Assembly: GCA_964473825.1 (NCBI GenBank)
Contig: CAYYQL010000004.1
Location: 85,127 to 149,126, forward strand
Source: an uncultured archaeon
GTDB taxonomy: Archaea; Asgardarchaeota; Thorarchaeia; Thorarchaeales; Thorarchaeaceae
DNA: 64,000 nucleotides
Direction of reading: 5' to 3'
A program made the translations under genes and the position numbers. The notes under the pieces are model-generated. The model ran no database searches, had not been told where the DNA came from, and saw nothing but the letters and a program-made list of their open reading frames with translations. Shown piece by piece: positions 6,610 to 40,466 of the stretch. Position 1 is the stretch's first letter, and each line of letters begins with the position of its first letter.

Positions 6610-7755
6610 CTACGTGTACCGGAGATTGGTTCCTGTGTTCAACAGGACTACTTCTTCATCAAAGTCTATGTCGCCAGCCTCCACAAGATTTCGGAGTCCT
6701 GCTAAGCCAACTGCTGCTTCTGGTCCCATCATAATGCCCTCCATTCTTGCGACCATGACCTGAGTCGGTCGAATCTCATTCTCAGCGACAGCGACGGCGG
6801 AACCACCCGATCGCCTTATGGCACTCAGTATCAGTCTTCCGGCAAATGGGTTTGGAACACGAAGACCCAATGCTTCTGTGCGAGGGTTCTTCCAAGGCTC
6901 CAGTGTATCCAATCCCTTTTCGATAGATCGAACTATGGGGGCGCAATTCTCAGTCTGTGCGGCATATAACTTGGGTCGCTCACTCCCAATAGCTCCAATG
7001 CCCTCAAGCTCGTCTAGGGCCTTCCATATTCCTATCAAGGCAGTACCTCCACCAGTTGGACAGATTATTGCATCAGGAACTTCCCAGTTCAACTGCTCAA
7101 TTATCTCAAATCCTATCGTTTTCTTTCCTTCAACCCGATAGGGTTCTTTTGTTGTGGATAGGTCTATCCAGTCTCCCTTTGTCGCTGTCATCCTCATGGC
7201 TGCGTCTGAGATTGTACCTTCGACGCGATGAGTCAACGCTCCGTACATCTCGCAATCCCTGAAGAAGGGCTCCGGCGTGTCATCTGGCATGAATATGGAA
7301 GCCTTTGCCCCCGCTGCAGCACAGTAGGCCGATGTTGATACCGCCGCATTCCCTGCTGAGGGAAGAGCGAAGCTCCTTGCGCCAAGTTCGAGATGCTTCG
7401 ATATCGCGCTACAAAGACCACGGTCCTTGAAGGACCCCGTCGGATTCAGAGTTTCATTCTTGATACGGAGCAATCGAAGCCCAACTCTCTGTCCAAGCCT
7501 TCGAGCAGTCAACATCGGTGTCCAGCCCTCTCCCAGACTCACTACGAATGAGAGTGACTTCACCGGGAGTAATTGAGAATACCGCCACATGCTATTGATA
7601 TCTGTCGGGAATCCTCCACATCTGAAGGCATCACGGACTCCACCAAGATTATAGGTCGCCATTAGAGGCGAACCACAAATGCAGTGGTCCGCAGGTCTAT
7701 CTGCCGAGTACTTCGTTGCGCACTCGGGACATTCGAGATGAGTTATGTTTGACAT
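6610..7755 (-). CDS. thrC: threonine synthase-like PLP enzyme
   Basis: N-terminal CxxC..CxC; SLGEGWTP, NPTGSFKDRG, SAGNA, PTGGG. Confidence 0.85.
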   Translation of the reverse strand: MSNITHLECPECATKYSADRPADHCICGSPLMATYNLGGVRDAFRCGGFPTDINSMWRYSQLLPVKSLSFVVSLGEGWTPMLTARRLGQRVGLRLLRIKNETLNPTGSFKDRGLCSAISKHLELGARSFALPSAGNAAVSTSAYCAAAGAKASIFMPDDTPEPFFRDCEMYGALTHRVEGTISDAAMRMTATKGDWIDLSTTKEPYRVEGKKTIGFEIIEQLNWEVPDAIICPTGGGTALIGIWKALDELEGIGAIGSERPKLYAAQTENCAPIVRSIEKGLDTLEPWKNPRTEALGLRVPNPFAGRLILSAIRRSGGSAVAVAENEIRPTQVMVARMEGIMMGPEAAVGLAGLRNLVEAGDIDFDEEVVLLNTGTNLRYT

Positions 7756-31498: not shown

Positions 31499-33940
31499 AT
31501 GTCTAGCACTTGGATACTGAAAACCAAGCAAATGAGCGAGGCAGGTAAGGAGATTATTCTCACAGAGGCGCTAGCGACTCACATGCGTAGTAACAGGGAC
31601 CGAGAGCTTCTGTCCAGCATACTCAAGGAGAATAGGCCCCTAGAAGACATAATGTCATTTTTCGCAGCCTTCTATCTCTACAACTATCAGGGCCTTCGAC
31701 TGCTCAGCATGAGTGATGACGAACAACTGACTATTGAGAAGAAGAAAGAGCTCTCGCATGATGAGCGTCGCTATCTTGAGATGGAGATTCGTGAGATACT
31801 GGAGAATAGGCTGAGAGAAGAGATTGACATCGAGCGACTGATTTCGGAGTTTGTGTTGGAGCTCGTTGATATACCGGGTGTGCAGGCACGAGAAGATGAA
31901 GCAGCTTCTAAGGTGGTCAGTCTTGTTGAGGGCTATCTTGAGAAGATTCCACACGACTATTCTCCTAACAGTGCCCTTGATTTCATTCTTGGCATCACAG
32001 GTTGGCGAAAGCGTTGGCTGGATGAGCTTTATGCGAAGGCCTCGGGACTGAAGGAATCCTCACTATCTCTCAGGGATGAATTACTAAGAGAACATGAGGC
32101 TGAAGTCGTAGAGACCTCGGTTGTTAGGAGGCTGCTATCATTCATTGCTGGAGGAGAATCCTATTTGAGCGGCCCTCTGACTGGGGCTGATATTCCTCAT
32201 GAAATCCTTGTCGAGATTACTCAGGCGTCAATTGACTTTCTGTTTCCTCGGTCCGGTTCTCTGGATCCTATCCGCTTGGCTCATGGCTCACGGATAGAGA
32301 TACTTGACTGGCTTGTTGAGGAAGTCGATTCTCTCACTAACCTCAGTGACCTTGAAAAGCGATTGGCTGACAGAATAACGGAAGAGATCACCACCAGCAT
32401 TCCAGATAATCCCCAGTATGCCTTTCCCTTTATCAGTCACCTCGTGTCTGTAGAAGAAGAGATAGTTAGAAGTGGACTGGCCGCTAAGCGTCTGGTGGAT
32501 CCGGAAACCCTGCTTGAGGGCCTCAGTTCATTTTCAAGTGACTCTGCTGTAGAAGAAACACCAAGTCAATACAGCCCGAAGGAGCTCGAGGACATAGAGC
32601 GTTCGCTACGAACTCTGGAGAAGCTCGAAGACACACTGGAAAAACCTGTTAAAGGAATGCTTAGAGCACGAGGTCTTAGAGCTGAAGAGCTTGACAAAGT
32701 TGGTATTAACATCTTGGCGAAGAATCCATCCGAACTCATCGCCATCGAATCACAAGTATTGGATGAACTAAGAAAGAAGATGAGGGTGCCCTCTCATGAA
32801 GAATTCCTCGAGATGCTGAAGGCCCGAGAACTCGTTGAGCACGGTGGCCTAGGAGAGATGGGCATCTCTTCTTCCTCCGACATGACGATACAGAGACAAC
32901 ATGAGGAAGCGGTAGCATCTCTAAGAATGGACCTAGTTTGGCATTTCATGATAGGCACTCTGAAGAACCTCGCAAGGGTCGTCGAGACCTATCTGAGGTC
33001 GAAGCAGGATCTATTACGGAGCAAGGCGCTGCTCTTGAGCATTTATCAAGATGCCGCCACAGAACTTCAATTCTTGCGAGAGGAGATTCTGATTGACTTA
33101 CTATCGGAACGTATTCTCGAAATGAAGCAGGTTCATCCACATCTTGATGGGATGATGATACGCTCTTGGATGCATGCCCGGCTGTCAAATCAGCACATGT
33201 CCGCTGCGAGGGAGGAGCTTGAGAAAACACCGAGCCCGGTCTTTGAGGGAGTGACTGACGAACCCCTGCAGGCCAGTACATTATCATTCGATAACTATGC
33301 CATATCCTTTGACCTGATGCAACGATTCCTAAGACGAGAGCGCAGGGAGAAACTCGCCAAGGAACAGCTTGCACTTGAAGCAGAACGAGAGGAGAAGCGA
33401 CTTCTTGAGAAGAAGAAGAGAGAGATTGATGTACTCTCATTCATCTATACGAAAGCCCATACAGTATTCAAAGCAACTGGCAGGGTTGGCACCGCAGGTC
33501 TGGAGTGGGATGAGAATGATTCGGCAAAATGCTCGAACATGCTTTCTTTCTTCGTGCAGACAAAAAGAGGTCGTCCAATCTGCCAAGTCTGTGGAAGTAC
33601 CCCAAAGGATGGGAAGTGTGAAACGCACGGCAAAGGACAGATGAAGACCAGCGATGACATCGATAATCTATCCGTCTTTGTGATGAGATCTCTCTCAGAT
33701 ATCAAGTCTGGGCTCATCGGGCCTACCGCTGAACCAGTATCATGGAGCGAGGCAAGGTCAATCGTTCAGAGAGAGATAAGCCGTCTGAAGCGGAAGGGGA
33801 AGATCACCTCAAAGATGGATCTCAAACAGCTTATGCTTGGAGAGATAAACCACATCATTGGTCCTGCGATAACCAGCGTCATAGCAGATTACTTCAATGA
33901 CTCATTGGGGTATGCTGCCCGAAGCGCCGGCATAGCTTGA
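31499..33940 (+). CDS. large hypothetical helical protein with Zn finger
   Basis: 813-aa ORF 3 nt downstream of the previous gene; CQVC......C..H. Confidence 0.8.
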   Translation: MSSTWILKTKQMSEAGKEIILTEALATHMRSNRDRELLSSILKENRPLEDIMSFFAAFYLYNYQGLRLLSMSDDEQLTIEKKKELSHDERRYLEMEIREILENRLREEIDIERLISEFVLELVDIPGVQAREDEAASKVVSLVEGYLEKIPHDYSPNSALDFILGITGWRKRWLDELYAKASGLKESSLSLRDELLREHEAEVVETSVVRRLLSFIAGGESYLSGPLTGADIPHEILVEITQASIDFLFPRSGSLDPIRLAHGSRIEILDWLVEEVDSLTNLSDLEKRLADRITEEITTSIPDNPQYAFPFISHLVSVEEEIVRSGLAAKRLVDPETLLEGLSSFSSDSAVEETPSQYSPKELEDIERSLRTLEKLEDTLEKPVKGMLRARGLRAEELDKVGINILAKNPSELIAIESQVLDELRKKMRVPSHEEFLEMLKARELVEHGGLGEMGISSSSDMTIQRQHEEAVASLRMDLVWHFMIGTLKNLARVVETYLRSKQDLLRSKALLLSIYQDAATELQFLREEILIDLLSERILEMKQVHPHLDGMMIRSWMHARLSNQHMSAAREELEKTPSPVFEGVTDEPLQASTLSFDNYAISFDLMQRFLRRERREKLAKEQLALEAEREEKRLLEKKKREIDVLSFIYTKAHTVFKATGRVGTAGLEWDENDSAKCSNMLSFFVQTKRGRPICQVCGSTPKDGKCETHGKGQMKTSDDIDNLSVFVMRSLSDIKSGLIGPTAEPVSWSEARSIVQREISRLKRKGKITSKMDLKQLMLGEINHIIGPAITSVIADYFNDSLGYAARSAGIA

Positions 33941-34273
33941 TCACTTCTCGGAAGACTCGGAATTCACACTTTGTGTTATCCAGTCCAGATAGGTATCATT
34001 TCCTTCAATAATCGGTAGGACAATGAATTCTGGCACTTCGTAGGGATGAGAGGCCAAGAGCGCTTGCTCTAGAGATGCAATTTTCACCGCCGTGGTCTTG
34101 ATGATTAGAAGGTCTTCTGGTTCCTTCTCGATTTCACCTTTCCATCGGTAGACGCTTGATAGACCTCTGACTATGCTCACACATGCACAGAGCCGCTTCT
34201 CAACGAACTCTTCCGCGATGCGATCCGAAGAATCGCGTTGGCAAGTGGTTAATGCAATACGGAATTCAGTCAT
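33941..34273 (-). CDS. cutA: divalent-cation tolerance protein CutA
   Basis: LCACV, SVYRWKG, E.LLIIKT, HPYEVPE. Confidence 0.95.
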   Translation of the reverse strand: MTEFRIALTTCQRDSSDRIAEEFVEKRLCACVSIVRGLSSVYRWKGEIEKEPEDLLIIKTTAVKIASLEQALLASHPYEVPEFIVLPIIEGNDTYLDWITQSVNSESSEK

Positions 34274-34342
34274 GACATCACATTGCGAGTGGAAACTTAT
34301 ATACGCCCTCTATCTCCGGAGTGAGTGTTGAGGGAACTCTGA

Positions 34343-35743
34343 ATGGTTTCAAAGTTCAAGCCCAAAGGGGTCATGCCTGCGCTGATTACACCCTTCACAA
34401 GAGATGGAGACATCATGGAAGATGGGTTCAGAGAGGTAATCGACTACACAATTGAGAAAGGTGCCACCGGGGTTGTCCCGGCTGGAACCACCGGTGAGTT
34501 CATCTACATGCGGACCGAGGAGCGTAAGAAGCTCCTCAAGCTCGCTGTAGAGTATGTGGATGGTCGAGTTCCAGTCATTGCTGGGACTGGGCAGAATAGC
34601 ACAAGGGCAACAATAGCGCTCACTCAATATGCCGCCGATATTGGTTGTGATGCTGCCCTTGTTGTTTCTCCGTTCTATCTCAGGCCTTCTGACAAGGGCT
34701 ACTATGAACACTACTCCAACCTTGCACGGCAAGGGAATCTGCCCCTGATTCTCTACAATATTCCTCAATGTACTCTGGGGGAACTCGGCTCAGATCTGGT
34801 CTACGATCTGGCTGCCCTAGATAACATTGCGGGGATCAAAGATAGCAGCGGCAATATCGGGAAGACGGTCGAACTCATCCAGAAGCTCGAAGGAAAGATT
34901 CCCGTACTGATTGGCCATGATGAATGCTTTCTGTCTGCAGTGGCTGCAGGTGCCAGCGCGGCAATACTGGCATCAGCCAATGTTATCCCTCACATCTGGT
35001 TGGATATCATGAAGAAGGTCAATGAAGGTAAGATGCTAGAGGCAATGAGACTTCAACACTCTGTTCAGACCTTTGCTCGACTTGTCACCAGAAACGGCGG
35101 TGCCCCTCCAGCAAAGGCCGCTCTGAAGATGATGGGAATAAACGCCGGGAAATCGAGACTGCCTCTTAATACCGGCGGGACGCTGACAGTCGAATTAAAG
35201 GACGAGATTCGCATGGAGCTTGAGAAACTGGGACTCATCGCCTCACAGGAGCAACAACCCCTGATTGATAATCTAGATATGGTTTCGCTCTTCAATGAGT
35301 TCAACATCTCTCCTGACCTTCTCGACGGTGCAAGATTCGGACAGGCCTCGAATGAACAGGTCAGTGTATCTATCGCTGCGGGGCCAAAGCAAGGTGATTT
35401 GGGTCGCGTGTTTGTGAAGCTGCTTACTCAGGCAAAGATTGGACATGAAGCGCTCTCGGTCATTCTTGAGCCAAACCTCTTTGTCAAGCCGAGTAGCATC
35501 ATGGTTCCGGCCCGGACCATAAGGTCGATGCGCCAGGCTTCTCTTTTCTACGGCCCTGTTCAGTCTGGTGCAGCCAAAGCAGTATCGGCATACCTCGATG
35601 CGGCGAAGATACCAGCTGAAGCATTGAACAGCAGTGTGATGATAATGGCAATGGATGTTGACTTGAACAGCAGAGATCGAAGAGCTGTGACAGATGCTGC
35701 AGAGAATGCGGTTGGAAGAGCATTGGCTGAGGTGTGGAGGTGA
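34343..35743 (+). CDS. DapA/NAL-family aldolase fused to degenerate Fae domain (copy 1)
   Basis: GTTGEF, LYNIP, GIKDSSG; C-domain from ~35330 with ILEPNL.VKP and Q...YGPVQSGAAKAV. Confidence 0.85.
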   Translation: MVSKFKPKGVMPALITPFTRDGDIMEDGFREVIDYTIEKGATGVVPAGTTGEFIYMRTEERKKLLKLAVEYVDGRVPVIAGTGQNSTRATIALTQYAADIGCDAALVVSPFYLRPSDKGYYEHYSNLARQGNLPLILYNIPQCTLGELGSDLVYDLAALDNIAGIKDSSGNIGKTVELIQKLEGKIPVLIGHDECFLSAVAAGASAAILASANVIPHIWLDIMKKVNEGKMLEAMRLQHSVQTFARLVTRNGGAPPAKAALKMMGINAGKSRLPLNTGGTLTVELKDEIRMELEKLGLIASQEQQPLIDNLDMVSLFNEFNISPDLLDGARFGQASNEQVSVSIAAGPKQGDLGRVFVKLLTQAKIGHEALSVILEPNLFVKPSSIMVPARTIRSMRQASLFYGPVQSGAAKAVSAYLDAAKIPAEALNSSVMIMAMDVDLNSRDRRAVTDAAENAVGRALAEVWR

Positions 35744-35748
35744 CCAAG

Positions 35749-37224
35749 GTGAGTGACGATTTCCATTTCAAGGGCGCTTATCCTGCACTGGTCACACCTT
35801 TCGATGAGGACGGGGTCAATGAAGAGCAGTATCGAGGTCTCATTGACTATGTCATAAGAGCCGGTGCAACGGGAATTGTCCCCTGCGGTACCACTGGAGA
35901 GTTCACCAGCATGCGCTTCGAGGAGAAGATGGAGGCCATCCGCATAGCATGTGATGCAGCGAAGGGCCGTGTTCCTGTACTTGCCGGAACAGGTGCTGCC
36001 TACACAAATGATGCCATCAAGCTCACTCGTCGTGCTGCGGAATTTGGTGCCGATGCAGCTCTGGTTGTTTCCCCATATTTCCTGAGGCCGTCTAATCGTG
36101 AGATATACGAGCACTTTGAGAAGATTGCCAACAACAGTGACATCCCTCTGTTTCTATACAATATTCCTCAAGTAACGGGAGTTCCCCTTCACTGGACCCT
36201 TGTCGACGGGCTTCGCGAGATCGATGGGGTAGTCGGAATGAAGGACTCTAGCGGAGATCTGGTGAATCTCACAACCATCCTCGTCAGAAGACCTGAGGAC
36301 TTTCAGGTTGTTATTGGTCATGATGAGGTTGCTTTGCCTGCATTAGCTGCAGGATGTGATGGTGCAATCCTGGCAAGTGCTAACGTGTTCCCCGATAGGT
36401 ACATCAAGATGCAGGCTGCACTTGCGGAGGGCGACCTCAAAGGTGCCATGATTATCCAACGGAGCATACAGAAGACCGTGCGGGTGTTTGTGAACAAGGG
36501 CGGGGGTCTTGCGGTGAAAGCAGCTCTCAATATGATGGGCGTTCCGGTCGGCAAAGCTCGGCTTCCCCTTATGGAAGGCGACTCTCTCTCTTACGAGGAC
36601 ATAGATGAGATTCGTACATGTCTTGAAGATATGCAGCTCATCCAGCGCGGACCGGTACGATTCGTCATGGGTGAGCGTAGTCTTGTCGCGGAGTCCTATC
36701 CAAAAGCAGTGGGGCTAGTGCAGGATGAGGTATCTGATCTGACACTGCTACATGGTGAGGCCTTGGCTGGCAGTGGTCTGGAGGTCGCTCATGTGGACTT
36801 GGTCATGGGAATGAAGAACGGGCCCCTCGAAGTGGCAATTGACAACGCAGGTACTACTGTGGAGGGTTTCCATCCATCGAATATAATCAAAGGTCTTGAA
36901 CCCACAACCATTTTCGCTCCGACAGTGACCATCACCAACGAGCGACATAGGAATCTTGTGTACGAGAGTGCCCAGAAAGGTGTTGCTGATGCCGTCACAA
37001 GAACAATCACCGACTGTATCATTCCTGAAGAGCTGGTGCAGGATATTGCAGTTGCTGTGAATGTCTTTGTTCATACGAAGGCCATCAATCCGCGACGTGT
37101 GCATATCAACAATTTCCGTGCAGTCAGGTTCGCATTACGCAGAGCCATTGAGGGGAGGCAGAGTGTTGAGGAGATCGCTGCAAGGCGTGATTCGGCCCGC
37201 CATCCGTTTGCCTATAACCCCTAA
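35749..37224 (+). CDS. DapA/NAL-family aldolase fused to Fae domain (copy 2)
   Basis: GTTGEF, LYNIP, GMKDSSG; C-domain from ~36745 GEALAGSGLEVAHVDL...VFVH...RHPF; GTG start after GGAGGTGA. Confidence 0.9.
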   Translation: MSDDFHFKGAYPALVTPFDEDGVNEEQYRGLIDYVIRAGATGIVPCGTTGEFTSMRFEEKMEAIRIACDAAKGRVPVLAGTGAAYTNDAIKLTRRAAEFGADAALVVSPYFLRPSNREIYEHFEKIANNSDIPLFLYNIPQVTGVPLHWTLVDGLREIDGVVGMKDSSGDLVNLTTILVRRPEDFQVVIGHDEVALPALAAGCDGAILASANVFPDRYIKMQAALAEGDLKGAMIIQRSIQKTVRVFVNKGGGLAVKAALNMMGVPVGKARLPLMEGDSLSYEDIDEIRTCLEDMQLIQRGPVRFVMGERSLVAESYPKAVGLVQDEVSDLTLLHGEALAGSGLEVAHVDLVMGMKNGPLEVAIDNAGTTVEGFHPSNIIKGLEPTTIFAPTVTITNERHRNLVYESAQKGVADAVTRTITDCIIPEELVQDIAVAVNVFVHTKAINPRRVHINNFRAVRFALRRAIEGRQSVEEIAARRDSARHPFAYNP

Positions 37225-37551: not shown

Positions 37552-37715
37552 TCCTCATTTGTGTCAACTAGGTGGGTCGTGTTTTCAACTCGTTCCAAGA
37601 TGCCTGTGCTCTGCTTTCTGACAAATCCCTACTTCATTGCCTTTGGCCTCATAGAGGCCATCCTTTTAGCTCAAAGAGATTATATGCATTTATACGAATA
37701 GTAACACGATGGCCA

Positions 37716-37988
37716 ATGTTCGAAATCATCACCTTTGTGGTAGCGTTTGTAACCTTGCTGTTCCTAGCAGGGAAGTGCTACGGCCGGGGCCCCTCCTCCG
37801 GGGAGGTAAGAATAACGAGGCCTGACCCGAAGAGAGTTGATGGGTTTGGTGGAGTAAGAGGTTATGATTACTCGTATTCTGGATTCTCGGGCAGAGGATA
37901 CAGCAGACCTTTTCCAGTTGGTCTTAGGACTGAGCGAGAGCGAACCGACACCCACAAGAACTCCAAGGGCAGGAACTCCCGCCGCTAA
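37716..37988 (+). CDS. small single-TM protein (paralog 1)
   Basis: MFEIITFVVAFVTLLFLAGKCYG...; homologous to the copy at 38263. Confidence 0.7.
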   Translation: MFEIITFVVAFVTLLFLAGKCYGRGPSSGEVRITRPDPKRVDGFGGVRGYDYSYSGFSGRGYSRPFPVGLRTERERTDTHKNSKGRNSRR

Positions 37989-38262: not shown

Positions 38263-38539
38263 ATGTTCGAGATGATTGGGTTCGGAATCGTCGTCGTCAT
38301 GCTCCTCTTCCTTAGCAGGGAAGTGCTACGGTTGGGGTCGCTCCTCCGGCGAGGTAAGAATAACGAGGCCTAACCCGAAGAAAGTTGATGGATTCGGCTG
38401 GACACGAGCTTGTGGTTTCTCCTACGTTGGGGCCAATCCCGATGGCTATCCCAAGCCACTCCCTGTTGGCCTTCGGGGAGAGCAAGAAAAGACAGATACC
38501 TGGAAGGCCTCTGAGCGCAACGATTCGGACCGCCAATGA
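38263..38539 (+). pseudogene. paralog 2 of the small TM protein, frameshifted by an extra T at ~38312
   Basis: TTCCTTAGCAGGG vs TTCCTAGCAGGG in paralog 1; early TAA at 38371; homology continues in the shifted frame to 38539. Confidence 0.7.
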
Positions 38540-39326: not shown

Positions 39327-40466
39327 ATGGAGATGCTCAAGGAATCACGGATCATTTCGCTTGCCCAGTCCCTGATTGCGACCAATTCGGAGAGTCCGCC
39401 CGGGAGAGAGGCTGAAGTTGCAGCAGTGTTGAGAGAGCACATGGAGTCGCACGGAATTGGATGCAGGTCCGTTGGCGAAGCAGAACGTCCAAATCTTATC
39501 TTCTACTCCCACGACTATGAGATAGGCGATCTCGTCATTCATGGCCATATGGACACAGTTCCGGTTGGGTCTATCGAGTCCTGGAAGCACGACCCGTTTG
39601 GTGGAGAGATTGTCAACGGTCGGCTCTATGGACGTGGCTCCTGTGATATGAAGGGGCCAGTGGCAGCACTAGCCGAGTCGATCATACTCTATTCAGAAGA
39701 AAGACATGAACGTCCTCTTGTCATGCTTGCTACATCGGATGAGGAGAGCGGCTGTTCAGGAGCCGAGGCTGTTGCAGCGAGTGGTATCTTGAAGGGCATA
39801 AGGTACGGAGTATGTGCGGAACCCACCAGTCTGGATGTGCTGGTAGGTGAAAAGGGGATGCTCTGGACAAAACTCATCGCTCATGGAAAGTCAGCGCACG
39901 GGTCTAGACCTGAAGAGGGAGTAAACGCCATCGACCTCTGCATCAAGTCGCTCCAGCTGGTCAAAGAAACAGAGTTTCCCTACGAACAGACTGAACTCAT
40001 GGGCCCGCCCACTCTAAACCTAGGTCTCATCGAGGGTGGTATCAAGATCAATGTTGTCCCTGATAGATGTGAGGCATCACTTGACATGAGGCTTGTCAAG
40101 GGCCAGTCTATAGATACCGTTCTTGAGAATATGCGACTGGTCCTAGATGAGTCGCAATTCGATGGGCGAGTTGAGCTGGAATACGTGCATGGGAAGGACG
40201 CAGTTCTGACACCTTTGGATGCAGAGATTGTCGCTGTCACACTGGATGCTGTTGAAGCAAATACGGGTCACAGACCTACTCCCACATCTGCGACCTATGG
40301 TACCGACTGCTCGGTGTTGCAGCCCAAGATCGGGATTCTCAATGTCATATGTGGTCCGGGCTCAATTGAGCAGGCTCACCAGCCGAATGAATACATCCAG
40401 ATCGAAGAGATGGTTAACTCGGTCAACATATACTTGGAGATTGCACGCCACTTCGCTTCCAGTTGA
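39327..40466 (+). CDS. M20 family metallo-amidohydrolase (ArgE/DapE-like)
   Basis: HGHMDTVP, GRGSCDMKG, DEE, AEPT, GPG..QAHQPNE. Confidence 0.92.
   Translation: MEMLKESRIISLAQSLIATNSESPPGREAEVAAVLREHMESHGIGCRSVGEAERPNLIFYSHDYEIGDLVIHGHMDTVPVGSIESWKHDPFGGEIVNGRLYGRGSCDMKGPVAALAESIILYSEERHERPLVMLATSDEESGCSGAEAVAASGILKGIRYGVCAEPTSLDVLVGEKGMLWTKLIAHGKSAHGSRPEEGVNAIDLCIKSLQLVKETEFPYEQTELMGPPTLNLGLIEGGIKINVVPDRCEASLDMRLVKGQSIDTVLENMRLVLDESQFDGRVELEYVHGKDAVLTPLDAEIVAVTLDAVEANTGHRPTPTSATYGTDCSVLQPKIGILNVICGPGSIEQAHQPNEYIQIEEMVNSVNIYLEIARHFASS

Follow-up and report, generated by a model that had tools for sequence, protein, structure and literature searches.

The window examined here, a stretch of 64,000 nucleotides from contig CAYYQL010000004.1 of an uncultured archaeon (assembly GCA_964473825.1), carries two co-directional genes, A and B, each encoding a fusion of a DHDPS-like aldolase with a Fae-like domain. 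The names of close homologs among the protein database matches indicate Thorarchaeota, an Asgard lineage. In both proteins the Pfam DHDPS domain (E about 1e-74) precedes the Pfam Fae domain, with a linker of roughly 50 residues between them, and these two Fae domains are the only ones in the genome. The features of the locus are as follows, in positions of the window and with residue numbers of the respective protein.

34297..34303, + strand: TTATATA, a TATA-box-like element about 40 nt 5' of the start of gene A, spotted by eye
34343-35743, + strand: gene A, 466 aa, DHDPS-like aldolase fused to an A-type Fae-like domain, the 'loop-face' subunit (open reading frame and domain matches)
34361..35173, + strand: DHDPS domain of A (residues 7-277); equivalents of Lys161, Tyr133, Thr44 and Tyr107 kept, that of Arg138 being Cys
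35348..35728, + strand: Fae-like domain of A (residues 336-462); His motif lost and variable among orthologs, C-terminal arm absent
35447..35491, + strand: EALSVILEPNLFVKP segment retained in A (residues 369-383), lying in the modelled interface
35552..35563, + strand: GPVQ retained in A (residues 404-407), its Gln being the Gln88 equivalent
35734-37224, + strand: gene B, 496 aa, DHDPS-like aldolase fused to a B-type Fae-like domain, the 'His-face' subunit (open reading frame and domain matches)
35736..35751, + strand: A-B junction, with a Shine-Dalgarno-like GGAGGTGA enclosing the TGA stop of A, then five bases, then the GTG of a 491-aa B
35767..36585, + strand: DHDPS domain of B (residues 12-284); equivalents of Lys161, Tyr133 and Thr44 kept, Arg138 replaced by Val and Tyr107 by Phe
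36751..36801, + strand: HGEALAGSGLEVAHVDL in B (residues 340-356), with H353 as the His22 equivalent; residues 340-344 and 355-357 in the modelled interface
37063..37074, + strand: VFVH in B (residues 444-447), from motif comparison
37201..37209, + strand: HPF of the C-terminal arm of B (residues 490-492), from motif comparison

The GTG at 35749 is an alternative start of B that yields a protein of 491 aa, and homologs of B in the database are 491-492 aa long. The layout of the junction would allow translational coupling of the two genes.

Both Fae-like domains scored above the Pfam gathering cut-off (PF08714, 27 bits), A with 85.4 bits over profile positions 9-135 only and B with 106.8 bits over positions 2-158. 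The cut-off of the Fae equivalog TIGR03126 (118.05 bits) was reached by neither, the scores being 75.8 for A and 117.8 for B, against 209.6 for an intact single-copy fusion of the same architecture. Motifs were aligned to the solved Fae of Methylobacterium extorquens (1Y5Y), which B matched with an E value of 2e-23 and A with 3e-9. The Fae domain of B contains HGEALAGSGLEVAHVDL, VFVH and ARHPF, and has IKGLEPTTIF at the place of APNLPCKPNTLMF in 1Y5Y and YESAQ where FGPAQ is expected. The Fae domain of A contains ILEPNLFVKP and FYGPVQ, with QVSVSIA standing for EVAHIDL and MDVD for VFIH, and its C-terminus is about 26 residues short. The invariant columns retained in its EALSVILEPNLFVKP segment are E369, L371, L375, E376, P377, N378, V381 and P383.

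The ligand of canonical Fae reportedly lies in a cleft between neighbouring subunits, where His22 is said to act as the acid catalyst and Gln88 to sit at the pterin. These residue assignments, together with that of the C-terminal arm, follow the published description.

The same division of motifs recurs in consensus sequences built from 30 orthologs of A and 29 of B, and is not peculiar to one genome. The B consensus reads HGEaLaGeglEVAHVDL with H353, NvFVHp and the ARHPF arm; its LEPNL.VKP loop has lost four residues, and 'ev' stands where FGPAQ has GP. The A consensus retains GhEALtvILEPNL.VrP and FYGPVQSGAAkA, has lost the His motif, reads alDvD instead of VFVH and lacks the last ~26 residues. 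Ser is the commonest residue at the His22 position in A (73% of the 30 orthologs), where B has His. The original prediction had described this division of motifs from the two sequences of the window, with the His motif, VFVH and HPF assigned to B and the loop and GPxQ to A, and both halves of it were borne out by the structure-based alignment as well as by the consensus sequences.

To express the complementarity in numbers, 40 columns were scored that vary neither in canonical Asgard Fae nor in the intact single-copy fusions. Retention was found in B only for 22 columns, in A only for eight, in both for four and in neither for six, so that 34 of the 40 persist in one paralog or both. Columns retained in A tended not to be retained in B (negative association, Fisher p = 0.011, a value that overstates independence since the columns are clustered). 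The division is lopsided, with 26 of the 40 columns retained in B and 12 in A, and neither chain holds the full set. Pairwise identities among orthologs follow the same lines. The best-conserved parts of the A domain are its retained segments (0.75 and 0.85, the latter for the GPVQ segment), compared with 0.35 for the lost His face, which is under relaxed selection. Among B orthologs the His motif, the VFVH region, the helix that follows it and the arm all lie between 0.75 and 0.85.

The two Fae domains, each with its own alignment, were modelled as a single hetero-dimer. The complex scored 0.85 against 0.00 for the best control; the mark used for this score is reached by 58 of 80 solved complexes and by two of 110 mismatched pairs. 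At least 89% of the contacts agreed between runs, and the predicted local distance difference test value (pLDDT) of the partners was at least 78. The B side of the modelled interface comprises residues 340-344 (HGEAL), 355-357 (just past H353), 393-399 and 441 and 443 (just before VFVH), and the A side residues 349-351, 354-366, 369-372, 374, 377-378 (the PN of the loop), 380, 384 and 386. Equivalent helices of the two chains lie side by side at equal height, as expected of neighbours in a ring. The model places the His face of B against the loop face of A, which would be the 'live' orientation, and not the reverse. The parts retained by each paralog thus fall on the two sides of one interface in the model, as had been anticipated for a composite site.

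Tandem genes in the order A then B were found in all 16 genera of the Thorarchaeota family to which the window belongs, with 30 orthologs of A at 60-95% identity. Most of the 76 genomes sampled from this family lack a canonical Fae and have precisely two Fae matches, both weak. In family genomes with seemingly one copy, the locus is cut by contig ends, and one genome of 93% completeness lacks both genes. Other Asgard families possess Fae-Hps and often, in addition, one gene of ~500 aa with the same architecture and an intact Fae domain (195-205 bits). This intact single-copy fusion (loci L036-L043) is 40-45% identical to both A and B.

A wider survey of 1.84 billion representative proteins yielded about a dozen clusters of full-length fusions at 50% identity, which could be sorted by their motifs into intact, A-like and B-like forms. 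One Korarchaeota metagenome-assembled genome encodes A-like and B-like proteins with consecutive accession numbers, twice. In Chloroflexota-type metagenome-assembled genomes an A-like gene lies directly upstream of a B-like gene at about 37 of 43 loci, with the same pattern of motifs, and at loci without an adjacent partner an A-like gene was present elsewhere in the genome in all three cases tested. A fourth lineage carries an adjacent A-like/B-like pair in which the division of the Fae domains is kept and the Schiff-base lysines of the aldolase are replaced in both proteins. No B-like lineage examined lacked the equivalents of His22 and of the neighbouring Asp, and GPxQ occurred in almost all A-like ones (P0253 has GVIQ). 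The pairing of orthologs with an unchanged division, named beforehand as a check of the heteromer, extends from the 16 family genera to Chloroflexota, Korarchaeota and the fourth lineage; apparent singletons proved to be cut by contig ends or to have their partner elsewhere in the genome, and true single proteins are of the different, intact form.

A tree of the whole proteins placed the A-like and the B-like sequences each on one side of a branch (support 98 and 99). In a second tree, built from the aldolase domain alone with the Fae trait columns excluded and rooted on stand-alone DapA, the fusion family was monophyletic (100), A and B grouped together (88), and each formed a clade (94 and 91). 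These trees of the wider sample indicate that the split is an old duplication spread across several phyla, namely Asgard archaea, Korarchaeota and Chloroflexota. They supersede an earlier reading, at first seemingly compatible with the data, in which the duplication was confined to the Thorarchaeota family. The degeneration proposed at the outset is thus upheld as complementary and revised in two respects, being ancient rather than a recent decay and falling more heavily on A than on B.

One exception was seen in the aldolase tree, where the domain of a Korarchaeota B-like protein stands beside that of its A-like neighbour (P0248 and P0246/P0405; support 94), while the whole protein groups with the B-like sequences. 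Such a placement points to gene conversion within the tandem pair or to convergence. In the pair from the fourth lineage (P0249/P0410 and P0250; L111:162-2788) the lysines are replaced by Ala and Leu, and Tyr133 of the B-like protein is His as well; genes resembling MtnA, a class II aldolase and agmatinase, recognised by eye, lie 3' of it (L113). A Chloroflexia B-like protein (L083:5998-7539) has an insertion of ~22 residues exactly at the point of the PNL..KP loop deletion of its relatives. Neighbouring genes offer scattered hints at most, which in Chloroflexota consist of S-adenosylhomocysteine hydrolase, TrmO-like and pyridoxal phosphate enzymes.

Homologs of A and B are labelled 4-hydroxy-tetrahydrodipicolinate synthase (DapA, of the lysine pathway) in public records, and the two proteins score 223 and 239 bits against the DapA equivalog TIGR00674, above its cut-off of 206 bits. 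Equivalents of the DapA residues Lys161, which forms the Schiff base, Tyr133 and Thr44 are kept in both. Arg138 of DapA binds the carboxylate of the substrate, aspartate semialdehyde. The equivalent position is occupied by Cys or Val in all 67 sequences aligned: the 30 A orthologs have Cys, 28 of 29 B orthologs have Val, and the single-copy form has one or the other. Searches of the 95.7%-complete genome found no DapB, DapF or Asd, the same searches being positive in 9-14 of 14 control genomes, and no homoserine dehydrogenase. On this evidence the public name of A and B is wrong, because the Arg138 equivalent is replaced and DapB, DapF, Asd and homoserine dehydrogenase were not found. The aldolase domains themselves are not degenerate: the single-copy form has 112 invariant aldolase columns, and A and B both preserve 70 of these. 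They do differ from each other in the loops near position 138-145.

Taken together, the data make it likely that the products of genes A and B are subunits of one old and conserved hetero-oligomeric enzyme with a composite cleft of the Fae type, as the original prediction had proposed on the grounds of complementary degeneration; the retention counts, the pairing of the genes and the complex model all lend support to it in silico. The ancestor would have been a single aldolase-Fae fusion of the kind still intact in other Asgard archaea, the Fae domains of which shed complementary parts after duplication. B would have kept the face bearing the catalytic H353, with the neighbouring Asp, VFVH and the C-terminal HPF arm, and A the opposite face, comprising K349, the EALSVILEPNLFVKP loop and GPVQ with the Gln88 equivalent. 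A complete Fae-type cleft would then be rebuilt only at the B-to-A interface, so that each A:B pair would have a single live site, to which B would contribute the acid catalyst and A the loop and Gln. The DHDPS-like domains probably hold the pair together through the tight-dimer interface of DHDPS. As the unused face of A is relaxed and armless and the unused face of B bears a deletion, we infer that the Fae domains form an open A:B pair or assemble in even numbers, and not as a five-fold ring.

The chemistry is more weakly inferred than the heteromer. By analogy with Fae-Hps, the aldolase may make or use a small uncharged aldehyde, in the simplest case formaldehyde together with pyruvate, and the Fae-type site may exchange this aldehyde with a one-carbon (C1) pterin carrier, which in this organism would be tetrahydromethanopterin (H4MPT). 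Two enzymes of H4MPT metabolism, Mch and Ftr, occur in the genome of the window.

Several points weigh against this interpretation. The support for a heteromer is in silico throughout. The success of the model may reflect memory of, or likeness to, the solved Fae pentamer rather than binding, and the location of His22 and of the loop with Gln88 on different chains follows from that model and from the published description. The Gln88 equivalent is still present in B of Thorarchaeota. A strictly alternating A/B ring cannot be five-fold, which means that A and B must assemble in another way than canonical Fae does. Mch was found in only one of five Chloroflexota hosts, so that the link to H4MPT is not universal, and the loss of both aldolase lysines in one lineage means that aldolase chemistry is not essential to every pair. 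Tyr107 of E. coli DapA acts across the tight dimer. The corresponding position is Tyr in A and Phe in B of Thorarchaeota, and a second trans-complementation at this residue was considered; it was rejected as a general feature, Chloroflexota A-like proteins carrying Phe there.

An alternative is that the Fae-like domains are non-catalytic and serve as an assembly or ligand-sensing module of a hetero-oligomeric aldolase, their residues being kept for packing. The loss of 28 of the 40 invariant columns from A, the failure of both proteins to reach the TIGR03126 cut-off, the four of five Chloroflexota hosts in which no Mch was seen and the position of several retained residues within the modelled protein-protein interface would all be in keeping with such a role. 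It is nevertheless rather unlikely, since the residues that persist, His22 and Asp in all B-like lineages examined and GPxQ in almost all A-like ones, are tied to catalysis and pterin binding and not to packing, and since the maintenance of the Fae division alongside dead aldolase lysines argues that the Fae part has a function of its own.

Independent neo-functionalisation, in which each protein forms its own homo-oligomer with a ligand or reaction of its own and the two are merely co-regulated as one operon, would account for the presence of Lys161, Tyr133 and Thr44 in both DHDPS domains, for the divergent loops near 138-145 and for the long stem branches, which suggest changed function on both copies. 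It is hard to reconcile with the absence of a full set of site residues from either Fae domain, with the relaxed selection on the His face of A, with strict co-occurrence and the joint loss of both genes from one genome, or with a complementary pattern that is constant across phyla, and appears improbable. The reading implied by the databases, an ordinary DapA of lysine biosynthesis with an accessory domain, draws on the TIGR00674 scores and on the name in public records; with Cys or Val at the Arg138 position throughout, with DapB, DapF and Asd missing from the genome despite searches that succeeded in most controls, and with the fusion family forming a clade apart from stand-alone DapA, it has very little to commend it.

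The heteromer proposed for A and B can be set beside several known systems. The Fae of M. extorquens (1Y5Y and 1Y60) has the homologous domain and, like canonical Fae in general, is a homopentamer of complete subunits, whereas the A and B chains are each incomplete and fused to an aldolase, and could not alternate in a five-fold hetero-ring. Fae-Hps, known from methanogens and other archaea and present in other Asgard families, likewise joins Fae to a C-C lyase that releases an aldehyde, the logic being capture of formaldehyde at its source. The partner in A and B is a class I aldolase of the DHDPS family and not hexulose-6-phosphate synthase, and Fae is C-terminal and divided over paralogs. 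Hps-linked Fae was not found in the family of the window, and an Asgard Fae-Hps query matched only the Fae parts of A and B in the genome. DapA has in common with A and B its fold, Lys161, Tyr133, Thr44 and a score above the hidden Markov model cut-off, and differs in that A and B lack Arg138, occur in a genome in which DapB, DapF and Asd of the diaminopimelate pathway were not found and belong to a separate clade. The intact single-copy Asgard fusion has the same architecture, with Cys or Val likewise at the Arg138 equivalent; unlike the pair, it is one gene with a complete Fae domain and presumably forms a homo-oligomer.

Paralog heteromers with a site shared at their interface include the trypanosomatid deoxyhypusine synthase DHSc/DHSp and AdoMetDC/prozyme. 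As proposed for A and B, an oligomeric enzyme was duplicated, loss was complementary and the complete site exists only in the heteromer; A and B show one duplication with complementary loss of site residues, as well as strict co-occurrence. They differ from these examples in fold and chemistry, in spanning archaeal and bacterial phyla and in being a two-domain fusion. Paralog heteromers with a divided interface site are already known as a kind.

A literature search turned up no publication that describes a DHDPS-Fae fusion or a heteromeric Fae. If the interpretation is correct, the pair would give both the Fae and the DHDPS family their first heteromeric member, as far as that search shows. 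It would also be a remarkably clear example from nature of paralogs that divide an active site at their interface, long held across domains of life; the dead-lysine lineage and the intact single-copy relatives provide built-in controls. The DapA labels mislead reconstructions of lysine metabolism in Asgard archaea and Chloroflexota. Among the archaea most closely related to eukaryotes, the aldolase may also mark an undescribed connection of C1 carriers with central metabolism.

A more specific proposal, and a speculative one, is that the A/B pair and its single-copy relative act as a pterin-dependent hydroxymethyl transferase, passing the C1 unit of methylene-H4MPT (in bacteria methylene-tetrahydrofolate) to pyruvate to give 4-hydroxy-2-oxobutanoate. 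If this is true, organisms without aspartate-semialdehyde and homoserine dehydrogenases would have a way of making homoserine-family compounds from the Wood-Ljungdahl C1 pool. The genome is without Hom and Asd and has ThrC-like genes, but no homoserine kinase (ThrB) was found above the cut-off in this 95.7%-complete genome. The co-occurrence of Hom with the single-copy fusion in family f9 further weakens the homoserine route, which is of low probability. A connection with ketopantoate was considered and dropped, PanB being present. No C-terminal domain of the Asd/ArgC type was found in the 95.7%-complete genome, which nonetheless has two or three genes resembling threonine synthase. The ThrC-like genes are located as follows.

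C45:8550-10058: ThrC-like gene
C6:31674-32669: ThrC-like gene
window 6622-7590, - strand: ThrC-like gene

A highly conserved Asgard hypothetical protein of ~426 aa adjoins the intact single-copy fusion in two distant lineages. It was located at the following positions.

L038:4754-6034, - strand: ~426-aa hypothetical
L041:1252-2559, + strand: ~426-aa hypothetical
L112:2849-3523, + strand: ~426-aa hypothetical
G000 C45:6497-7822, - strand: Thorarchaeota homolog of the ~426-aa hypothetical

Identity is 81-91% among its best 120 matches, which carry the names of Lokiarchaeota and other Asgard lineages, and 66% to the Thorarchaeota copy. The protein had no match in Pfam or NCBIfam, no PDB profile match and nothing above 0.9 in the Atlas, and its structure model was poor (pLDDT 50.6).

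Upstream of A, positions 31499-34273 of the window encode an 813-aa unknown protein followed by CutA1, on the minus strand. Both are syntenic in the family, the former at 29 and the latter at 24 of 30 loci. An M20 deacylase of the ArgE/DapE family lies at 39327-40466, about 2 kb 3' of B. A deacylase of this kind also occurs at most about 1 kb from the single-copy fusion in another Asgard family (L040:862-2277, - strand; L042:4859-6202, + strand), with one CitG-like gene between them, and its recurrence near aldolase-Fae genes is possibly meaningful. A literature search for a link between CitG and methanopterin found no paper. Just 3' of B, two small open reading frames on the + strand (37572-37988 and 38276-38539) encode proteins of 138 and 87 aa that have in common a motif of ~60 residues, AGKCYG.G.SSGEVRITRP.PK.VDGFG ... 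P.PVGLR.E.E.TDT.

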